64,000 nucleotides of DNA from a phage. Positions 34,894 to 62,600 of this stretch are shown piece by piece. The position numbers and the translations under genes were made by a program. The stretch is taken from NCBI GenBank assembly GCA_022897995.1, contig GCA_022897995.1_4763.1. One strand, written 5' to 3'. The notes under the pieces are model-generated. The model did not search any database. It was not told where the DNA came from and worked only from the letters and a program-made list of their open reading frames with translations. Each line of letters starts with the position of its first letter. Positions within the stretch are counted from its first letter, which is position 1.

Positions 34894-35649
34894 ATGAAAC
34901 TGTTTGCTTTTAAATCTAACGAAGAATTGGCGCTGGTTGTTTTCCGGCTGAACTCTATCATGGCTGGTGCTTCACGTCGCAACAAAGACTTCTCTATGAG
35001 CTTAGTCACTGTGCGTAACATTTACCGTCAGACTCATTGCGCCTATTCCGGTGAGGCTTTCGGTGAAGGTGATGATGGACTCTCCTTAGAGCGCATTGAT
35101 TGCAATCTAGGATATGTTGATGGCAATGTAATTCCGGTTAAACTGAAATACAATTCTTTCCGTGGCAATCACACTATCGAATCTCTTAAAGAGATCCAGG
35201 AACTAGGAACTAACGGTAAACTTTCTGATGATGAAATTGCCCTACGTGCGAAGTACATCGAGTGGATCGAACTTAACGAGAATCGCATCAAAAATCAGGA
35301 AATAGCAATCGAAGAAAAGAAGTTAGCAATCGAGCGCCACAAAAAGCACAACGAACCGGAGAAAGCAGAGGCAGCCGAGCGAGCGATTAAAAATACTCTC
35401 TTCCGTATGGAAGAACGTTATCAGAAAATTGCAGATCTCAAGCAAGCCCTTAGCGAAATCAACAAGAAAGAAGAAAAACTTAAGGCTATTGCAAACAATA
35501 CCGAAATCGTGCTAAAATATACCAGCGTTTTGATTGAATCTCTTTCTAAGTATGAGAACTTAACGCCAGCACAAAAAGAACGCGTGAAATACGGGCTTCC
35601 GATTGATGCGTCGTGGATTGAATTGATGAAAGCGAAGGTAGGTTTATAA
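34894..35649 (+). CDS. hypothetical coiled-coil protein (at the srd position)
   Basis: 251 aa; N-domain with YSGEAF...LSLERID...GYVDGNV, long coiled coil; function not assigned. Confidence 0.35.
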   Translation: MKLFAFKSNEELALVVFRLNSIMAGASRRNKDFSMSLVTVRNIYRQTHCAYSGEAFGEGDDGLSLERIDCNLGYVDGNVIPVKLKYNSFRGNHTIESLKEIQELGTNGKLSDDEIALRAKYIEWIELNENRIKNQEIAIEEKKLAIERHKKHNEPEKAEAAERAIKNTLFRMEERYQKIADLKQALSEINKKEEKLKAIANNTEIVLKYTSVLIESLSKYENLTPAQKERVKYGLPIDASWIELMKAKVGL

Positions 35650-35963
35650 TGCATGTATTTGCTGTATGTTATCGTGATAAAGACGGATTCTTTCAATACT
35701 CAGTGGACGCGAAAGGTCGCGTCCTAACTTGCGAAACACATGATGCTGCGTTAGCGTCAATGTGTGATCAGATAGATTATTGTGAGAGTCTATTGGCGGG
35801 TGAACCGAAATACAAGGTTGTGCCTAAAAGAAAATTTGGTATAATCCGGTCTTCTGAAATTGTTCGGGATGGTATCGAATATAAAATTCCTGAATATGAA
35901 AAAGAACGGGTACGGCGAGAACTCAATACTATCTGTGTTCGCAAGGTGAGGATTTTAGGATAA
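35649..35963 (+). CDS. hypothetical protein
   Basis: 104-aa ORF overlapping neighbours, directly upstream of dda. Confidence 0.4.
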   Translation: MHVFAVCYRDKDGFFQYSVDAKGRVLTCETHDAALASMCDQIDYCESLLAGEPKYKVVPKRKFGIIRSSEIVRDGIEYKIPEYEKERVRRELNTICVRKVRILG

Positions 35964-37354
35964 TGAGCAGAGTATTAACTTTCGATATGTTAACAGACGG
36001 GCAAAAACATGCTTTTGATGTTCTAATGAAACGCATTGAACAAAAGAAGCATACAACTGTCCGTGGTGCGGCGGGTACTGGTAAAACCGCAATGATGAAA
36101 TTCATTGTTCAGGAAATGGTCCGCCGTGGTGTAACTGGTGTGGTTTTGGCAACGCCTACCCACCAGGCTAAAAAAGTTTTGAGTAAAGCGGTAGGTCGTC
36201 AAGCATTTACTTTACATGCACTACTGCGACTAAACCCGACCAACTATGAAGATACTCAAGTATTTGAGCAAAAAGATACTCCTAAGCTAGATGATGTTCA
36301 GATCATCATTGTTGATGAAGCGAGTATGGTCGATAAGAAACTATTTGATATTCTCATGAAGAGTATCAACGGTCGAATTGTTATTATTGCCGTGGGTGAT
36401 CTGTACCAGTTACGACCAGTTGATCCGAGCGGTGCAACGTCGATCTCTCCTTTCTTCACCGATGAAAGGTTTCAGAATGTAGAACTTACAGAGATTAAAC
36501 GATCTAATGCGCCAATAATTGATGTGGCGACCGCTGTCCGTAATGGTAAATGGGTATTCGAAAAGCAGTGCGGTAACGAGGGTGTATTCCATAGCTCAAC
36601 TCTGCCGGAGTTTATGAAGCATTATTTCGAAACCGTTAAAACGCCGGAAGACCTTCTAGAAAACCGTATTCTGGCCTACACTAACAAGAGCGTCGAAAAA
36701 CTCAATGAAATTGTACGTAAGCGCGTTTATAACACCGATGAACCAGTGATTGTAGATGAAATTCTGGTTACTCAGGAACCATTGATCGAATATCTGCGAG
36801 ATGAACGCGGGAAGAAGATCCCCAATGTTATTTTTAACAATGGTGAGATGATCCGAGTTAAAGAGGTCATCCCGCGTGAATTTACATTACGTTGCACGGG
36901 GGTAGATCCGCAACCAGTTTTAGGCTATACTCTGAAAGTGGAAAGCGTCGATGATGACGAAGACAAAGAAATCCTAAATCAGAAAGTCGGTTTAGATGCG
37001 GTCGGAATCACTACAGATAAACCAGATTTAGTAGAAATCAACATTCTGACAGAACAACGTCAGAAGAACATTTTCTCTATCTATCTGAATACGGTCGCCG
37101 GACAATATCGCGAAATGAAGAAAGAGAATCCAAAATTTAAACCAGATTGGGATTCATTCTGGACGATGAAGCGTATGTTCTTGAATGTAAAAGCATTACC
37201 AGCTTGCACCATTCATAAGTCACAAGGGATCAGCGTAGACCGCGTGTTCCTGTATACTCCTTGCATGTGTACAGACAATGTTGACTTTGAATTGGCAATG
37301 CAGTTATTATATGTGGGTGTTACCCGTGCGAGGTATCGAGTAGACTATATTTGA
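35963..37354 (+). CDS. dda: DNA helicase Dda (SF1B)
   Basis: FDMLTDGQKHAF, Walker A GAAGTGKT, LATPTHQAKKVL, IIVDEASMVD, YVGVTRAR match remembered T4 Dda. Confidence 0.9.
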   Translation: MSRVLTFDMLTDGQKHAFDVLMKRIEQKKHTTVRGAAGTGKTAMMKFIVQEMVRRGVTGVVLATPTHQAKKVLSKAVGRQAFTLHALLRLNPTNYEDTQVFEQKDTPKLDDVQIIIVDEASMVDKKLFDILMKSINGRIVIIAVGDLYQLRPVDPSGATSISPFFTDERFQNVELTEIKRSNAPIIDVATAVRNGKWVFEKQCGNEGVFHSSTLPEFMKHYFETVKTPEDLLENRILAYTNKSVEKLNEIVRKRVYNTDEPVIVDEILVTQEPLIEYLRDERGKKIPNVIFNNGEMIRVKEVIPREFTLRCTGVDPQPVLGYTLKVESVDDDEDKEILNQKVGLDAVGITTDKPDLVEINILTEQRQKNIFSIYLNTVAGQYREMKKENPKFKPDWDSFWTMKRMFLNVKALPACTIHKSQGISVDRVFLYTPCMCTDNVDFELAMQLLYVGVTRARYRVDYI

Positions 37355-37364
37355 GGAAATTATT

Positions 37365-37532
37365 ATGATTATGCGAAGTATCCCAGAATTTAATGATGTG
37401 ACGGTAAGCCGTCACAATGGAACTGTTACCATGTGCTTTAGATGGGGTCTATACGGCTGGAACGTGTCCGGCGATAGTGAAGCTGCATGTATCAATAAAA
37501 TGATCGAGCATTTCACTAAGCGAGGTTTTTGA
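37365..37532 (+). CDS. small hypothetical protein (55 aa)
   Basis: Ends ...ACINKMIEHFTKRGF; 3' end is copy 1 of a ~59-nt direct repeat. Confidence 0.3.
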   Translation: MIMRSIPEFNDVTVSRHNGTVTMCFRWGLYGWNVSGDSEAACINKMIEHFTKRGF

Positions 37533-37537
37533 TATGG
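37479..37537 (+). repeat. direct repeat copy 1 (gene 3' end plus stop/start junction)
   Basis: GAAGCTGCATGTATCAATAAAATG...CATTTCACTAAGCGAGGTTTTTGATATGG; ~85% identical to 37658-37716. Confidence 0.7.
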
Positions 37538-37710
37538 CTAATGAAGCTAGAAGAACGAAGGGTTTAGATACGCGGTGTAAGCCAAAAATGACAAACGAAC
37601 AGTTACAGGATTTTTTGGCTGTAGCTCTTAATTCGTCAAAAAAATCTCGTGACTACCAAGCTGAATGTATCAATAAAATCCCAGAACATTCCACTAAGCG
37701 AGGGTTTTGA
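37534..37710 (+). CDS. small hypothetical protein (58 aa)
   Basis: Ends ...AECINKIPEHSTKRGF; 3' end is copy 2 of the direct repeat. Confidence 0.3.
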   Translation: MANEARRTKGLDTRCKPKMTNEQLQDFLAVALNSSKKSRDYQAECINKIPEHSTKRGF

Positions 37711-37716
37711 TATGGT
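37658..37716 (+). repeat. direct repeat copy 2
   Basis: CAAGCTGAATGTATCAATAAAATC...CATTCCACTAAGCGAGGGTTTTGATATGG. Confidence 0.7.
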
Positions 37717-37954
37717 TGTTATTAATAATGTGGCTAATGTAATACATCTACAATCAATTGTCGCGTGGAACCGTCAAAAGATTCATTGTGACTATGCACA
37801 ACATGTAATGAATTTTAACAACAAAGTACGCGCATACATGGCAACGGAACGACTGTTAACCGATAATTACGGTAACGGGATTATTGATTGTAGCGGTTTC
37901 ATTCTGGATAAAAACGATCTGGAGTTGTTCCGGCATATCGCGGAGGATATTTAA
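37712..37954 (+). CDS. hypothetical protein
   Basis: ATG 37712 immediately after repeat copy 2. Confidence 0.4.
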   Translation: MVVINNVANVIHLQSIVAWNRQKIHCDYAQHVMNFNNKVRAYMATERLLTDNYGNGIIDCSGFILDKNDLELFRHIAEDI

Positions 37955-37955
37955 A

Positions 37956-38624
37956 ATGCTTCCAGTGGATTTAATGATTGACTTTGAAAGTTTAGGTTAT
38001 CCGCCTGATGGGGTGGTGATCAATATGGCGGCAATCGGGTTTAAAGAAGATCCGCACAATCCACCTACATTTAAAGAACTGGTTGACAATTCCTTTCTGG
38101 TAAAATTTGATATTCCTTCCCAGAAAGGTGTAAGGGTGTTTGATCATGGTGTGGTTGAATGGTGGAAGAATACCGCCTCAGAAGGCATGAGAAAGCAATT
38201 AATCACAAATGGTACGGAAGTATCAACTAAAGAAGGTTTAGCGCGTTTTAACGCATTCTGTGAATCTGTAGGAGTAGATCCGGTTAAATCCGTAATGTGG
38301 TCACGCGGTAATGCGTTTGATATTCCGTTACTAGTTGATATGATCCGCCGTGCACACAATACACGAGAGACGTTCAGCCTTGAACCTGTGCGATTCTGGA
38401 ATATCAGAGATGTTCGCACCGCCATTGAGCGTACATTGATGCATCGCGGGATGTGTGAGTGTCCGTTACCAATGGGTACGCTAGATGGTTTTATCGCACA
38501 TGATGCAATTCATGATTGCGCTCGCGATATTCTTATGCTAATCTATGCACAACGTTATGCTATGGGTCTGGAAGACCTACCAGAAAATCCAGATCCAAAT
38601 TCAGTTAAGAAACAAAGGGGATAA
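37956..38624 (+). CDS. dexA: exonuclease A DexA (DnaQ-like 3'-5' exonuclease)
   Basis: DLMIDFESLG (exo I D-x-E), downstream Asp/His motifs; adjacent to dda; GGAGGA upstream. Confidence 0.7.
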   Translation: MLPVDLMIDFESLGYPPDGVVINMAAIGFKEDPHNPPTFKELVDNSFLVKFDIPSQKGVRVFDHGVVEWWKNTASEGMRKQLITNGTEVSTKEGLARFNAFCESVGVDPVKSVMWSRGNAFDIPLLVDMIRRAHNTRETFSLEPVRFWNIRDVRTAIERTLMHRGMCECPLPMGTLDGFIAHDAIHDCARDILMLIYAQRYAMGLEDLPENPDPNSVKKQRG

Positions 38625-38625
38625 T

Positions 38626-38799
38626 ATGCCATTATACGATTATTCTTGTGAAGAACACGGTCAATTTCAGAAAATCCGCAAAATTTCCGAGCGTGAAAAG
38701 GCAGAATGCCCTGAATGTGGTAAAGAATGCAAACAGGGATTAACTGCCCCGCGCGGGATTAATGGCGGGTACTATGATAAAAATGTGCGCGTGTCATGA
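38626..38799 (+). CDS. zinc-ribbon protein (FmdB-like CxxC...CPxCG)
   Basis: MPLYDYSCEEHG...ECPECGKEC. Confidence 0.5.
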   Translation: MPLYDYSCEEHGQFQKIRKISEREKAECPECGKECKQGLTAPRGINGGYYDKNVRVS

Positions 38800-38898
38800 G
38801 TCATATACTTGACAATCACTCAATTTTTAATATGATTGTTGCAGCCGTCTTTGTGGCGGTTGCAGTAAGTTATGGTTATGTTATGAAGAGGTTTAATA

Positions 38899-40722
38899 AT
38901 GAGTGAGTTTCGCATTTTATCTGATCGTGAACATGTCCTTAAGCGTGCAGGAATGTATATAGGATCAACAACTTACGAAGAACATCAACGTTTCCTGTTC
39001 GGTAAATGGACAAAAATTTCATACGTTCCTGGACTGGTTAAAATCATTGATGAGATCATCGACAACTCTGTAGACGAGGCGATCCGCACTAACTTTGAAT
39101 TTGCCAATGTGATTAGCGTCGATATCCAAAACAATATTGTTACGGTAACAGACAATGGTCGCGGTATTCCTCAACATATGGTTACTACCCCAGAGGGCAC
39201 GCAGATTCCGCAACCTGTAGCCGCATGGACACGAACAAAAGCAGGGTCTAACTTTGATGATACCAATCGATTAACGCAAGGGATGAACGGTGTTGGGTCG
39301 TCGTTGTCAAATTTCTTTAGCGATTGGTTTACTGGTGTAACCTGTGACGGCGAAACAGAAATGACCGTTCAATGCACAAACGGTGCTGAAAATATCACAT
39401 GGTCATCAAAACCATCAAAATTGAAGGGAACGAAGGTTACATTTTGTCCAGACTTCGACCACTTCGAAGGTTATATGATGGACAACTCTGTTTTAGATAT
39501 TGTTCATGATCGTCTGCAATCATTGAGCGTAATATTTCCTAAGATCACGTTTAAGTTTAATGGTAAACGTATTGTTAGTAAGTTCAAGGATTATGCTAAA
39601 CTATACAATGATGATCCGTTTGTCATTGAAGATAAAAACTTTTCACTTGCCCTAGTTCCTGCGGTCGAGGGAGAAGGTTTTAAATCAGTATCCTTTGCTA
39701 ATGGTCTGTTTACCAAAAACGGGGGAACACACGTAGACTACGTGACAGATGATCTTTGTGAAGAGATTGTAAAACGAATCAAGAAAGAATATAAGGTTGA
39801 TGTTACTAAAGCTGCGGTTAAGTCTGGATTGACCTGTATTCTTATTGTTCGTGAATTGCCTAACCTTCGTTTTGATTCACAGACAAAAGAACGATTGACT
39901 AACCCGACTGGTGATATCAAGCGTCATATTGATCTTGATTTTAAAAAGCTGGCTAAAGTCATTGCGAAGAAAGAAAACATTATCATGCCTATTATTGCTG
40001 TAGTCCTGGCACGCAAAGAGGCAGCCGATAAAGCGGCAGCGACTAAGGCAGCAAAGGCAGCAAAACGGGCTAAGGTGGCAAAACACGTTAAAGCTAACCT
40101 TATTGGAACTGACGCAGAAACTACCCTGTTTTTGACGGAAGGTGATTCCGCGATCAACTATCTGATCTCTGTACGTGATCAAGATTTACATGGCGGTTTC
40201 CCGTTGCGAGGCAAAACTCTTACAACGTGGGAACAACCGGAGGCAAAGATCGTTAAGAACGCCGAAATTTTTAACATCATGGCGATCACTGGCTTGCAAT
40301 TTGGTGTTGATGCATTGGAAGTTATGCAATACAAAAATATTGCGATTATGACAGACGCTGATACTGACGGGATCGGGTCTATTAAACCTAGTCTGATCTC
40401 TTTCTTTGCACGTTGGCCTGAATTGTTCGAAGATGGACGAATCCGGTTTATCAAAACACCTATTATCATTGCTGAACCAAAGAAAGGTGATGATGTTCGA
40501 TGGTATTATGACCTAGAAGATTTCGAGAACGACCGAGATAATATCAAAGGTTACAACATTCGATATATCAAAGGTTTAGCATCGCTCACAGAATCCGACT
40601 ATCATCGCGTGATCAACGATCCTGTCATGGAGATCATCACGTTACCGGAAAACTATAAAGAGCTATTCGATTTGCTCTATAGTGAAGATGCAGATCAGCG
40701 CAAAATTTGGATGTGTAGCTAA
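38899..40722 (+). CDS. 39: DNA topoisomerase II large subunit (unsplit gene 39, GyrB-like)
   Basis: 607 aa; GHKL ATPase motifs IIDEIIDNSVDE, DNGRGIP, GLHG-type TOPRIM region; no separate gene 60. Confidence 0.9.
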   Translation: MSEFRILSDREHVLKRAGMYIGSTTYEEHQRFLFGKWTKISYVPGLVKIIDEIIDNSVDEAIRTNFEFANVISVDIQNNIVTVTDNGRGIPQHMVTTPEGTQIPQPVAAWTRTKAGSNFDDTNRLTQGMNGVGSSLSNFFSDWFTGVTCDGETEMTVQCTNGAENITWSSKPSKLKGTKVTFCPDFDHFEGYMMDNSVLDIVHDRLQSLSVIFPKITFKFNGKRIVSKFKDYAKLYNDDPFVIEDKNFSLALVPAVEGEGFKSVSFANGLFTKNGGTHVDYVTDDLCEEIVKRIKKEYKVDVTKAAVKSGLTCILIVRELPNLRFDSQTKERLTNPTGDIKRHIDLDFKKLAKVIAKKENIIMPIIAVVLARKEAADKAAATKAAKAAKRAKVAKHVKANLIGTDAETTLFLTEGDSAINYLISVRDQDLHGGFPLRGKTLTTWEQPEAKIVKNAEIFNIMAITGLQFGVDALEVMQYKNIAIMTDADTDGIGSIKPSLISFFARWPELFEDGRIRFIKTPIIIAEPKKGDDVRWYYDLEDFENDRDNIKGYNIRYIKGLASLTESDYHRVINDPVMEIITLPENYKELFDLLYSEDADQRKIWMCS

Positions 40723-59630: not shown

Positions 59631-62600
59631 TTAGTCTTCCCAGATAAAATCTACGGTACGAGTCAGATTATTGGCAATGATTTTAACATTACCAACCTTG
59701 ATCCAGTCACGAACCGTCATAGAGTTCATTAAACCACCTTCGGCAACAACTGCCCCGATTTCCTGAGCGGTAGGCTTGTTCTGTTTGGTGTAAATTTCGC
59801 CCCATGCGGTCCATTGACCATCTGTACCGGAACGGATATAATGCTTATGAGTACCATCAGGCGACCAGATTTGGGTAAGGCCGTTTTCATCAGTACCCCA
59901 TTGCATCAATGTACCATTTTTCTTTTCTGGGTAGGTTTCTTTGATGTTTTGGGTCGTTACTCGCATGTTCCAGAAGCCAATGTTACCAATTGCTGGTGCA
60001 GTAGTAGCGATCGCTTCATGCTTAACTGATACAATAGACGCGTTATCCATAATCAATTTACCAGTCATTGTATCGCCAGCATTCTTAACAAACTGACGGT
60101 TGAGAACTTCGTCTGCGTTTCCTGCGTGGACGATCTGATATTTCTGTCCTGCGATCTCTGTAGTCAGATTCTGATAACCTGCTTTGATGTTAACACTTCC
60201 ACCGTGACCGATATTCAACATACCATCAGGGGAACGAGTCATTGCCGGATTAGACTGATCAACAATGTATAAACCGCCTTGTTTCGCATACAGGTTACGA
60301 CCTGCAATAAAGTCTCGATATGCTGCCGCGTCGCCATTATGTTCCATAGCAAAGGCGTAATGCTCAACAGATCCAGAATCGTCAATCTTACAGAAAGCGA
60401 TAGCATCACTATTAACTGCTTGCGCCGTTCCAGTACCACCAACGATAAGAGACCATGAGTTTTCCATACCTTCTGACAAGGTTGTGCCATGCAGAGTAAT
60501 TCCGGTGTGACCATCAACTCCACGCTCGCCCAATACCAGATGACCATTACTCGGATCATCAGTTGAGTTCTTAGTCACAAAGAGAGTTTCAAAGGAACCG
60601 GATTTTAAGCACTCTAAATCGCCCTCTACGTTGACGTTTTTCTTAAAGGTGTAATTACTCTCGATGGTCTGGTCAATGTCTCTACGCGCCCATTTAGCGG
60701 CCTCTACGTTGCCCAACTTCAAACTATTCTGAGCGGTTGCCATCTTAGGTAAGAAATTAGCAAGTGTGTAGTTTAATCCTTTCGGAGTTACCGCAATCCC
60801 GTCATGCTGATATTCATCAAGCTCTTGAGTAGAACCTTGCAGATCGTCACCAACAAAACAGTTTTCTTGTGTTGCTACTTTCAGGAATCCGCGACGGGCT
60901 TCCGTTGCTTGCCATGTTTCTTCTGTCTGCGCAACATACTTGAAGTTTTTAGGCGAAATTGCTACGTTGTCCATAGTACCAGCGACGGTTTCGGCTTGAG
61001 TACCGACTCGGATAATACCTTCTTTACCCTCGGTGGCCTTTTTGCCTTGCAGCTTTTTAGGAGTAATGATCGTAGCGTCATCTTCTCCTGCGTCCGTAAG
61101 CTGACTAGTTGCAACTTTCGCGACGCCTTTTGTATCTTCGGTTGCATCAAGACCACTGATCATGATACCCTGCCACAAGTCACCAGTAAGGTTAAGTCCT
61201 TGAGTCGGATCTACTTTCAAACGCTGTGCGTTCTCAAAGAAGGTTTTAATCTTCAATGGGGTAGAAATGCGAGCGTCGTCACGACCTGCGTCGAACTCTT
61301 CTTGAGTTGCAATTTCTGCTAAACCATGTAAAGTTTCCGTAGCACGGCGAGTATGCAGTTTTTTAGGTGTGATAATATGTTTATCACTTTGGCCTAAGTT
61401 AGTTTCTTCCTGCGTAGCAATTTCAGCGATACCAGTACGGGATTCGGTAGCAGTACGCTTGGTTAACGTGCGAGTGGTGATCAGCAATGCATCTTGCGGG
61501 GTTGATTCAGTAGCCCCTTGCACTTCCGCGTCAGTTGCCAGATACCCAACACCACGAGAAGTTTCAGTAGCTTTAACTTCGTTGATGTTTTGCGGAGTAA
61601 CGATTTTAGCGTGGTCGTTGATGTTATAGATCCCCGTGCCAGCTTCACCCCTTCGAGCGGCAGCATTACCGCCTACCTGAACAATTTCAGCGATACCAGC
61701 AAGATCCTCGGACGCGCGACGTTCTTCTAACTTCTTAGGAGTGATTGCGCGAGTATCGTCTAAACCTTCGTTGGTTTCATGTTGAGTTGCAATTTCCATC
61801 ACACCACGACGGTCTTCGGTAGCAACACAGTCATTTAACTTTTTAGGTGTAACGATAACATCATCCAGGAAGTTGGAACCAGTATCTTGATGCGTTTCCG
61901 CTTGAGTTGCAATGCGAGCAATACCGCGTCGAGTTTCGTTGGCTGTTTTATTGGCCAGAACCTTTGGAGTCACCGCAACTTCGTCGCTAGGATCATCTTC
62001 ATGGTTTTTGTTTGTTTCATCCTGGTTAGCCAGTGCAATTACACCAACTCGATCTTTACGGGTAGGATCTACTCGTTCTACAATCGGGTGAGCATGTGCT
62101 ACCAACCAGTGTTTCTTACCGTCATCACCTTCTGAATAAGAGAACTCCAGATAAGGTACATAATCATTTGCAGCGTTGAAAGACAATTCAGACACTTCCG
62201 TCCATGTATCGGTCCCATTGAATGGGTACTCGCTACGCTTAGGAAACTGAACCATGTTTTTCTGCATAAGAATTTTTGTATCTTCTGCGGCGGTAATGAT
62301 TCGGCAGGTCTGGTTTCCGTGCATATACTGCATAGAAACTTGGATACGATCGCCAGGCTCGACGTTAGTCGGTAAGGTCAGAGTAACATCATGATCACCA
62401 AATACAGCAACATAGCTATTAGGAGATAGGCGAGTATCATCAATGATTGGATTCAAGCGAACCGACTGATCACCATCCCACACACGCCATAAGTTTTCCG
62501 GCTTGTCAAAGATGAATACACCATGACCGCTACGCTTACCAACAATTTCTTTTAACCCGAAAGTACCGATTGATTGTTCTTGCGCACCTTCATGCACTTT

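Follow-up and report, generated by a model that had tools for sequence, protein, structure and literature searches.

Several described systems resemble in part the locus considered here, a 58-nt direct repeat flanking the small gene ORF009.1 between dda and dexA in a 64,000-nt phage contig (GCA_022897995.1_4763.1; this whole stretch is called the window below). The closest are the promoter-early stem-loop (PeSL) cassettes of RB49 and Phi1 (PMC2839356; Comeau et al. 2014, PMC4122927), which come from the same genus and in which a single ORFan is likewise present or absent among relatives, a direct repeat carries an upstream stop codon, a Shine-Dalgarno sequence and a downstream start codon, and homologous recombination between the repeats removes the open reading frame (ORF). 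PeSL cassettes have a promoter and a stem-loop, whereas the 58-nt repeat has neither and is mostly coding, and unlike the dispersed PeSL family it appears to be a one-off target duplication, with two copies in the window and, among phage genomes, an occurrence at this locus only. ORFan009.1 itself has been listed as one of seven Phi1-specific genes lying outside the hyperplastic regions (Arbiol et al. 2010, PMC2839356), and the main text of that paper makes no mention of a flanking repeat or of a plasmid origin.

Two further parallels concern phage antitoxins. PhiTE hijacked ToxI from a plasmid (PMC3475682), so that there, too, a lytic myovirus gained only the antitoxin part of a plasmid toxin-antitoxin module by recombination. 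The PhiTE case involved a type III RNA antitoxin, laboratory selection and a demonstrated function (PMC3475682), whereas ORF009.1 would be a putative type II (YafO-family) protein antitoxin, found in natural isolates, truncated and fused to the tail of a phage gene. The T4 protein Dmd is a phage antitoxin against RnlA and against LsoA, the latter borne by plasmid pOSAK1 (PMC5308261); like ORF009.1 as proposed here, it is small, comes from a T4-type phage, is made early and replaces a labile host or plasmid antitoxin, and the LsoA module likewise sits on a small plasmid. ORF009.1 differs from Dmd in being a direct copy, at the DNA level, of a candidate antitoxin, with an activity that is predicted. 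Dmd is not known to resemble RnlB or LsoB in sequence. The classical rII deletions of T4 are an example of microhomology-mediated illegitimate recombination, with deletion between short direct repeats. They share with the present locus junctions at 6-7-nt identities amid patchy similarity and deletion between repeats of tens of nucleotides; unlike them, the event at ORF009.1 would have inserted foreign DNA and itself created the repeat.

The source of the window is a Krischvirus (an RB49/Phi1-like T4-type coliphage), since the segment 36900-38700 matches 59 phage records, all of them Krischvirus, with Skers and G37-3 as the best matches (both 99%). We propose that ORF009.1 is a fragment of a plasmid gene captured by illegitimate recombination in a Krischvirus ancestor, with a 58-nt duplication of the target, and we would give this explanation as a whole a probability of roughly 0.8. 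Its structural and evolutionary part is well supported by independent lines of sequence comparison, and it bears out the suggestion of the first-pass annotation that illegitimate recombination of a gene cassette had left a footprint here, in that a plasmid-gene fragment appears to be joined to the phage at two microhomologies. What is new is the identification of the plasmid donor family and of the exact junctions for an ORFan known since 2010 to be present in Phi1 and absent from RB49. The features on which the argument depends are as follows.

37365..37532, + strand: ORF010 (55 aa, phrog_16162, a phage ORFan), whose last 17 codons fall in repeat copy 1.
37480..37537, + strand: repeat copy 1, with the ORF010 3' end, a GAGG Shine-Dalgarno sequence at 37522-37525, TGA at 37530-37532 and ATGG at 37534-37537.
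37531..37537, + strand: left junction microhomology GATATGG, 7 nt exact and 12/15 in register with plasmid AAGGTTTCGATATGG.
37534..37710, + strand: ORF009.1 (58 aa, phrog_37371), an apparent chimera in which the ATGG duplicated from the ORF009 start is followed by a body of 120 nt derived from the plasmid and then by the duplicated ORF010 tail, which brings the stop.
37538..37657, + strand: unique body of the insertion, 120 nt, 88% identical to a 50-aa gene on ColE1-like E. coli plasmids.
37658..37664, + strand: right junction microhomology AAGCTG(A), 6-7 nt exact, between plasmid CCAAGCTGATATCAC and the ORF010 tail GTGAAGCTG[A/C]ATGTATCA.
37658..37715, + strand: repeat copy 2, a duplicate of the ORF010 tail that closes ORF009.1, with GAGG at 37700-37703, TGA at 37708-37710 and the ATGG of ORF009.
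37712..37954, + strand: ORF009 (80 aa, phrog_15021), with its ribosome-binding site and start codon inside the repeat.

The direct repeat reported by the first-pass annotation is real. It comprises 37480-37537 and 37658-37715, which are 58 nt long, identical at 50/58 positions (86%), ungapped and 178 nt apart from start to start; the location and the identity of about 85% given earlier stand, while the second range given there, 37658-37716, is one base too long. Each copy does hold the 3' end of a small ORF, its stop codon and the ATG of the next ORF, as had been described, with the final 17 codons of the ORF rather than about 14. The similarity lies far above chance: local alignment of the two ORF regions scores 38 compared to 7.9 ± 1.0 (maximum 13.5) in 2000 shuffles, and a degenerate 38-nt pattern of the repeat has exactly 2 matches in the 64-kb window versus 0.00 expected (100 shuffles). 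That the two small proteins are unrelated outside the repeat also proved correct, as no DNA similarity between ORF010 and ORF009.1 is found 5' of the repeat (the global score falls short of the shuffle mean, and p = 0.12 for the local one), BLASTP aligns only the C-terminal 28 residues (E = 2e-9), and the PHROG cross-matches between the two are confined to residues 35-55 and 38-58. No further copy of the repeat or of the body was found in the window, or in phage genomes beyond the present locus.

The source of the body became apparent only through blastn of the 120 nt and not through protein searches. Against 5,426 E. coli genomes (20,395 records) this query gave two matches, NZ_AP022094.1 and NZ_CP145632.1 (p2-S1-SRL-01-C), both plasmids of about 3.1 kb that align along the entire query at 88% identity (E = 3e-34), with no chromosomal match in the same genomes. 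One of the plasmids is circular and carries an RNAI gene, and is therefore a ColE1-type replicon. The matching gene has 50 codons (WP_024046379.1) and lies 36 nt upstream of a gene for a 172-aa "YafO family toxin" that passes the Pfam model YafO_toxin (PF13957) with 35.2 bits against a cut-off of 25; a divergent helix-turn-helix gene stands upstream of the 50-codon gene. The collection lists the plasmid small protein (P0023) in 1307 blocks, variants with 78-82% identity occur in Enterobacter, Serratia and metagenomes, and in 16/16 contexts from E. coli, Enterobacter and metagenomes the small gene is co-oriented with the YafO-like gene and 36-40 nt upstream of it. YafO modules place the antitoxin gene first and the toxin second (PMC11980606). 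Because of this antitoxin-first order and its constant position upstream of the toxin, the 50-codon gene is likely the antitoxin of a YafO-family module and is treated below as a candidate. The low-confidence AlphaFold2 monomer of its product has one helix (residues 21-37) and is otherwise disordered (pLDDT 67), a model that is compatible with an antitoxin and not diagnostic of one. Searches of Pfam, PHROG, NCBIfam, PADLOC and PDB returned no informative family for ORF010, ORF009.1 or the plasmid protein, and the PDB profile search with the latter gave chance matches only (E >= 0.68). In blastn of the whole plasmid against phages, the other matches were to the ColE1 origin or to vector-like sequences in unrelated records and have no biological meaning.

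Two observations on this plasmid family may be recorded separately. On NZ_AP022094.1 (L030) a perfect 9-bp hairpin, GAATCCCTG-N9-CAGGGATTC, occupies 264-290 and runs right up to the ATG of the gene for the YafO-like toxin, where it could control toxin translation. An unannotated small ORF at 617-835 in the N4-like coliphage Gamaleyavirus AN24P2 (L051, OZ035740.1) contains ...KPVMTNEQLQEFIDAGLKQSK... and resembles the plasmid 50-aa protein (KPKMTNEQLLAFLAAGINASK; tblastn E = 0.1, 47% identity over 34 aa), so that AN24P2 may be a second phage lineage with this protein family.

The limits of the homology between phage and plasmid can be placed closely. Including the microhomologies it extends from about 37527 to 37664, corresponding to plasmid coordinates 2471/2473 to 2606/2607; it begins 7-9 nt before the ATG and ends at ...GACTACCAAGCTG(A). 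At the left junction phage gaggtttttGATATGG aligns with plasmid aaggtttcGATATGG, and at the right junction plasmid CCAAGCTGAtatcac aligns with the ORF010 tail GTGAAGCTG(A/C)atgtatca. The two microhomologies form the outer borders of the 58-nt repeat, and the plasmid homology stops there. In the phage, AAGCTG(A) lies 51 nt upstream of the GATATGG junction, inside the ORF010 tail.

Comparison with relatives shows that the repeated tail is an original part of ORF010, the phage gene upstream. The ORF010 of KFS-EC (69% identical) has it as CINSMIDHFTKRGY, metagenomic homologues of 47-55% identity (P0013, P0016) have it as ...ECINKMVEHFTK, and gp35 of Kagunavirus keeps it more weakly as ADCINQ; homologues of 34-69% identity keep the tail without an adjoining ORF009.1. 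The remote homologues (34-55% identity) reach beyond Krischvirus to Kagunavirus siphophages and metagenomes with an A-x-CIN...FTK tail retained, and the Kagunavirus example is at 707-856 in Escherichia phage 26 (L026). In a tree of the body, the phage alleles nest inside the E. coli plasmid clade, and the plasmid alleles are more diverse than those of the phages. Because of the homology limits, the native ORF010 tail and this nesting, transfer from plasmid to phage is the simplest reading of the direction.

A mechanism consistent with these junctions would begin with a phage 3' end pairing with the plasmid at GATATGG, in the ribosome-binding-site and start region of both genes. Some 125-130 nt of the plasmid gene would then be copied into the ORF010/ORF009 junction, before the copying returned to phage sequence at AAGCTG(A), 51 nt upstream of the point of departure. 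With the exit lying upstream of the entry, this would duplicate the 58 nt from one microhomology to the other, inclusive. Features of a transposon or insertion sequence are missing from the locus: the ends of the 120-nt body lack inverted repeats, a transposase gene would not fit, and the junctions are microhomologies with the donor.

The duplication also appears to account for how the fragment can be expressed. No stop codon came with the plasmid fragment, and its start codon is at the same time the duplicated start of ORF009. Copy 1 gives ORF009.1 a Shine-Dalgarno sequence and the ATG that formerly started ORF009, while copy 2 gives it 15 in-frame codons of the ORF010 tail and a stop, followed by a Shine-Dalgarno sequence and an overlapping TGAtATG restart for ORF009. 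Since the two copies supply start, stop and restart, the gene string from dda to dexA is uninterrupted; the insertion is non-polar in this tightly packed string, which is probably translationally coupled. The locus can thus serve as a worked example of a foreign fragment with neither start nor stop made into an expressed gene through duplicated translation signals, and the same duplication makes the gain of the gene reversible, independently of its function.

Among Krischvirus, matches to the region form two classes, one of full length (1801 nt) and one that is 178 nt shorter. Used as a blastn query, the 178-nt unit is found in 18 records representing 15 distinct phages, whereas in another 34 records (32 distinct phages) only its 54-nt repeat part is matched, and there is no match outside Krischvirus. 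Carriers of ORF009.1 include Phi1, GEC-3S, ECD7, kvi, the Makalu phages and Skers. Variants with one copy, which the first-pass annotation had suggested looking for, do exist: RB49, JSE and about 30 others lack exactly 178 nt, and in RB49 and JSE ORF010 is directly followed by ORF009. Protein matches to ORF009.1 are near-identical Krischvirus proteins, always at the same locus, and in a set of 5.8 billion proteins the homologues of ORF009.1 and ORF010 came only from close Krischvirus relatives, with the plasmid homologue not reported.

The two copies have since served as a substrate for phage homologous recombination, with crossovers at different points deleting the unit between them, and sequence comparison shows that such recombination has precisely deleted the 178-nt unit at least twice. 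Neighbour-joining trees of the left flank (dda 3' end and ORF010) and of the right flank (ORF009 to 39.2) both intermingle one-copy and two-copy phages, and both place PHB13 (one copy) as the sister of 011D4 (two copies). The single repeat of PHB13 equals copy 2 of 011D4, down to a diagnostic extra A and GCCAGAACATTCC, and joins straight onto the ORF010 body; the two phages have no substitution for hundreds of bases around the repeat. On this comparison PHB13 is a deletion that arose by a crossover at the repeat's 5' end. Apart from the 178-nt gap, FL15 and kaaroe show 17 substitutions in 2.2 kb relative to the window, fewer than the 26 of the two-copy phage Skers. Their single copy matches copy 1 as far as position 34 and copy 2 from position 47 onwards, and the crossover is therefore placed in CACTAAGCGAGG. 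Opposite states are also found in the sister pairs ECD7/MIZ6, pEJ01/Whisky and Skers/kaaroe. Within a genome the identity of the two copies ranges from 50/58 (window) to 57/58 (Makalu), a range that indicates exchange between copies, which has made them more alike in some lineages. Deletion and exchange of this kind account for the patchy presence and absence seen among close relatives. As an observation apart, the two flank trees (L001-L024) are incongruent with each other, which shows frequent mosaic recombination among Krischvirus even across 2 kb.

We then consider variation within ORF009.1 itself. Within phages, codons 1-34 have a ratio of non-synonymous to synonymous polymorphism (pN/pS) of 0.40, or 0.32 by segregating variants, compared to 0.21 for ORF010, 0.23 for ORF009, 0.05 for dexA and 0.02 for dda, and the synonymous value (pS) of about 0.10 is like that of the flanks. 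A pS similar to the flanks together with a pN/pS of 0.3-0.4 indicates that ORF009.1 is old in the gene pool and not unconstrained; its variants are 10 non-synonymous and 8 synonymous, versus the ratio of about 4:1 expected under neutrality. The divergence between phage and plasmid is nearly all non-synonymous (9-13 non-synonymous versus 0-2 synonymous) and clustered in the predicted helix, codons 24-37, where the class I substitutions are QLQDFLAVALNSSKKS; tests for positive selection after capture gave p = 0.05-0.57 on small numbers. The common, window-type allele, with 88% DNA identity to the plasmid gene overall, matches it at about 98% over the first 80 nt and at about 75% over the last 40 nt. 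Two metagenomic Krischvirus contigs, L032 (170 kb) and L033 (169 kb), carry instead an allele that matches the plasmid at about 97-98% throughout (about 98% for L032), at the same site and with the same junctions.

Sites of ±1 frameshift in ORF009.1 are a T6 run at 37612-37617 (pEJ01), an A7 run at 37640-37646 (ECD7 and the Makalu phages), and the AAAA of copy 2 at 37675-37678, where 011D4 and PHB13 are shifted at AATAAAAT; at least those shared by several isolates are inherited and not sequencing errors. In L033 nine nucleotides of the ORF (1501-1653) are duplicated in tandem and in frame (AGCGTTTAG, giving ...SRKRLEPK...), and loss of 1 nt ends the ORF right after CINK.

As for function, the analogy with Dmd and with PhiTE makes it the likeliest role of ORF009.1 that it putatively neutralises the plasmid YafO-like toxin during infection, a role that we rate as nearly an even bet and not quite that. 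Made early, the protein would neutralise a toxin that would otherwise abort infection in plasmid-bearing hosts, much as T4 Dmd stands in for RnlB and LsoB. A broader version, in which ORF009.1 is a working counter-defence gene against an abortive-infection YafO-like module of common ColE1-type plasmids, gained by template switching that microhomology guides at a translational-coupling junction, re-sampled from plasmids and shed through its own duplication when superfluous, with the AN24P2 ORF as an independent instance, is more speculative and we hold it tentatively; repeated re-sampling is suggested because L032 and L033 carry plasmid-identical alleles. No literature linking Krischvirus or ORF009.1 to an antitoxin or to the plasmid module was found. 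If the role is real, the locus would be a natural, sequence-documented theft of a plasmid protein antitoxin by a lytic T4-type phage, it would imply an anti-phage role for the YafO-family module on widespread small ColE1 plasmids, and it would provide a simple host-range marker among the Krischvirus used in therapy (Phi1, GEC-3S and ECD7 with the gene, RB49 and JSE without).

Several points count against this explanation, some against its structural part and more against the functional one. How the pieces were joined, by a template switch or by two illegitimate crossovers, we infer from the junctions only. The plasmid-like allele class may be ancestral or may stem from later exchange with plasmids, and a second capture through the same microhomologies is also possible. 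For most one-copy phages (the JSE type) 'never inserted' and 'deleted' both fit the data, and repeat position 47 (T/G), used above for FL15 and kaaroe, is polymorphic in both copies and by itself only a weak marker of a crossover. With respect to function, ORF009.1 is lacking in about two-thirds of the sequenced Krischvirus; it keeps residues 1-43 of the 50 in the plasmid protein and has lost the last 7; and the plasmid protein belongs to no described antitoxin family (such as YafN/Phd, RelB or MazE), with no match in Pfam, NCBIfam or PADLOC. The gene is frameshifted or truncated in 6/15 sequenced two-copy phages (pEJ01, 011D4, ECD7 and three Makalu phages) and also in both plasmid-like metagenomic alleles, which argues that any counter-defence benefit would be conditional. 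The non-synonymous excess would fit relaxed constraint and adaptation alike.

These same features, namely the broken alleles among both the two-copy phages and the plasmid-like class, the absence from most of the genus, the mostly non-synonymous divergence and the lack of a family match, would be expected if ORF009.1 were a functionless passenger, a trapped scrap of plasmid tolerated since the junction keeps downstream translation going, and now decaying or being deleted. This possibility shares the structural account in full, and we consider it plausible while wagering somewhat against it. It has to contend with the retention of ORF009.1 at a pS as old as that of its flanks and with the pN/pS already given, and with the fact that all frameshifts except that of pEJ01 leave the first 34-36 codons intact. 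The captured piece is, moreover, specifically the gene in the antitoxin position, taken from its own ATG and in frame, and there is a second, plasmid-like allele class at the same site as well as a possibly similar ORF in an N4-like coliphage.

Other origins for the repeat can be weighed against capture from a plasmid. That the plasmids took the gene from Krischvirus is very unlikely: the near-identity between L032 and the E. coli plasmids points to recent exchange and does not by itself give the direction, whereas the gene on the plasmid is intact, having a ribosome-binding site and a C-terminus of its own as well as a constant partner toxin, and shows deeper allelic diversity across genera. 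The phage gene, on the other side, is chimeric, its non-plasmid part duplicates the neighbouring phage gene, and one-copy phages and divergent ORF010 homologues show the state before insertion. A PeSL border, with the ORF moving as a PeSL mini-circle, is attractive at first sight since the same phages are concerned and an ORFan present in Phi1 and absent from RB49 lies between direct repeats with stop, Shine-Dalgarno sequence and start (PMC2839356). We nevertheless find it highly improbable, because 53/58 nt of the repeat, through the stop codon, are inside an open reading frame and neither 37480-37537 nor 37658-37715 contains a sigma-70-like promoter or a terminator-like stem-loop, and the PeSL identity was rejected on the latter ground. 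A double-stranded circle of 178 bp would also be near the persistence length of DNA and is an unlikely intermediate. A conserved RNA element was rejected as well, with no common fold of the two 58-nt copies (z = +0.92 and +0.47) and no Rfam match in 35500-39500 at E <= 1.

It is scarcely credible that ORF010 and ORF009.1 are paralogues from a tandem duplication whose 3' end was kept by selection on the tail or on the ORF009 initiation region. Their common C-terminal 17-21 residues do produce the PHROG cross-matches and the BLASTP value quoted above; however, there is no similarity 5' of the repeat, the body has another source at 88-98% DNA identity, and the sharp repeat boundary coincides with the end of the plasmid homology. 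The plasmid homology refutes this origin, and contamination of the plasmid records is ruled out because synteny is conserved in over 1000 independent plasmid contigs. An artefact of assembly, which the first-pass annotation had named as grounds for refutation, or of sequencing has a negligible chance: several metagenomic contigs and about 15 phage genomes, sequenced independently by different laboratories in different countries and on different platforms, share the two-copy layout, and the copies differ at 8 positions.

The genes on either side of the locus complete the picture of the region.

35963..37354, + strand: dda helicase gene (left flank), ORF of 463 aa, annotated as Dda DNA helicase in RB49, Phi1 and JSE.
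37956..38624, + strand: dexA, exonuclease A gene (right flank).
38626-38799, + strand: 39.2 (FmdB-like zinc ribbon).
From 38899, + strand: start of gene 39.

Elsewhere in the window, a 79-nt direct repeat at 3772-3850/4683-4761 (73% identical) flanks a unit of about 900 nt and contains TTGACA, a GGGAGTA...TACTCCC stem-loop over a TAAAAT -10 box, a Shine-Dalgarno sequence and an ATG. This has the look of a genuine PeSL pair and is quite unlike the 58-nt repeat. Short direct repeats with 71-78% identity at 10818-10886/11295-11363, 4371-4420/5001-5050 and 45150-45180/45591-45621 lie at the starts or in the interiors of neighbouring small ORFs, which are probably tandem paralogues. At 61301-61937, five copies of a 37-nt motif (65-73% identical, with spacings of 108-252 nt) suggest a periodic repeat within a coding region.

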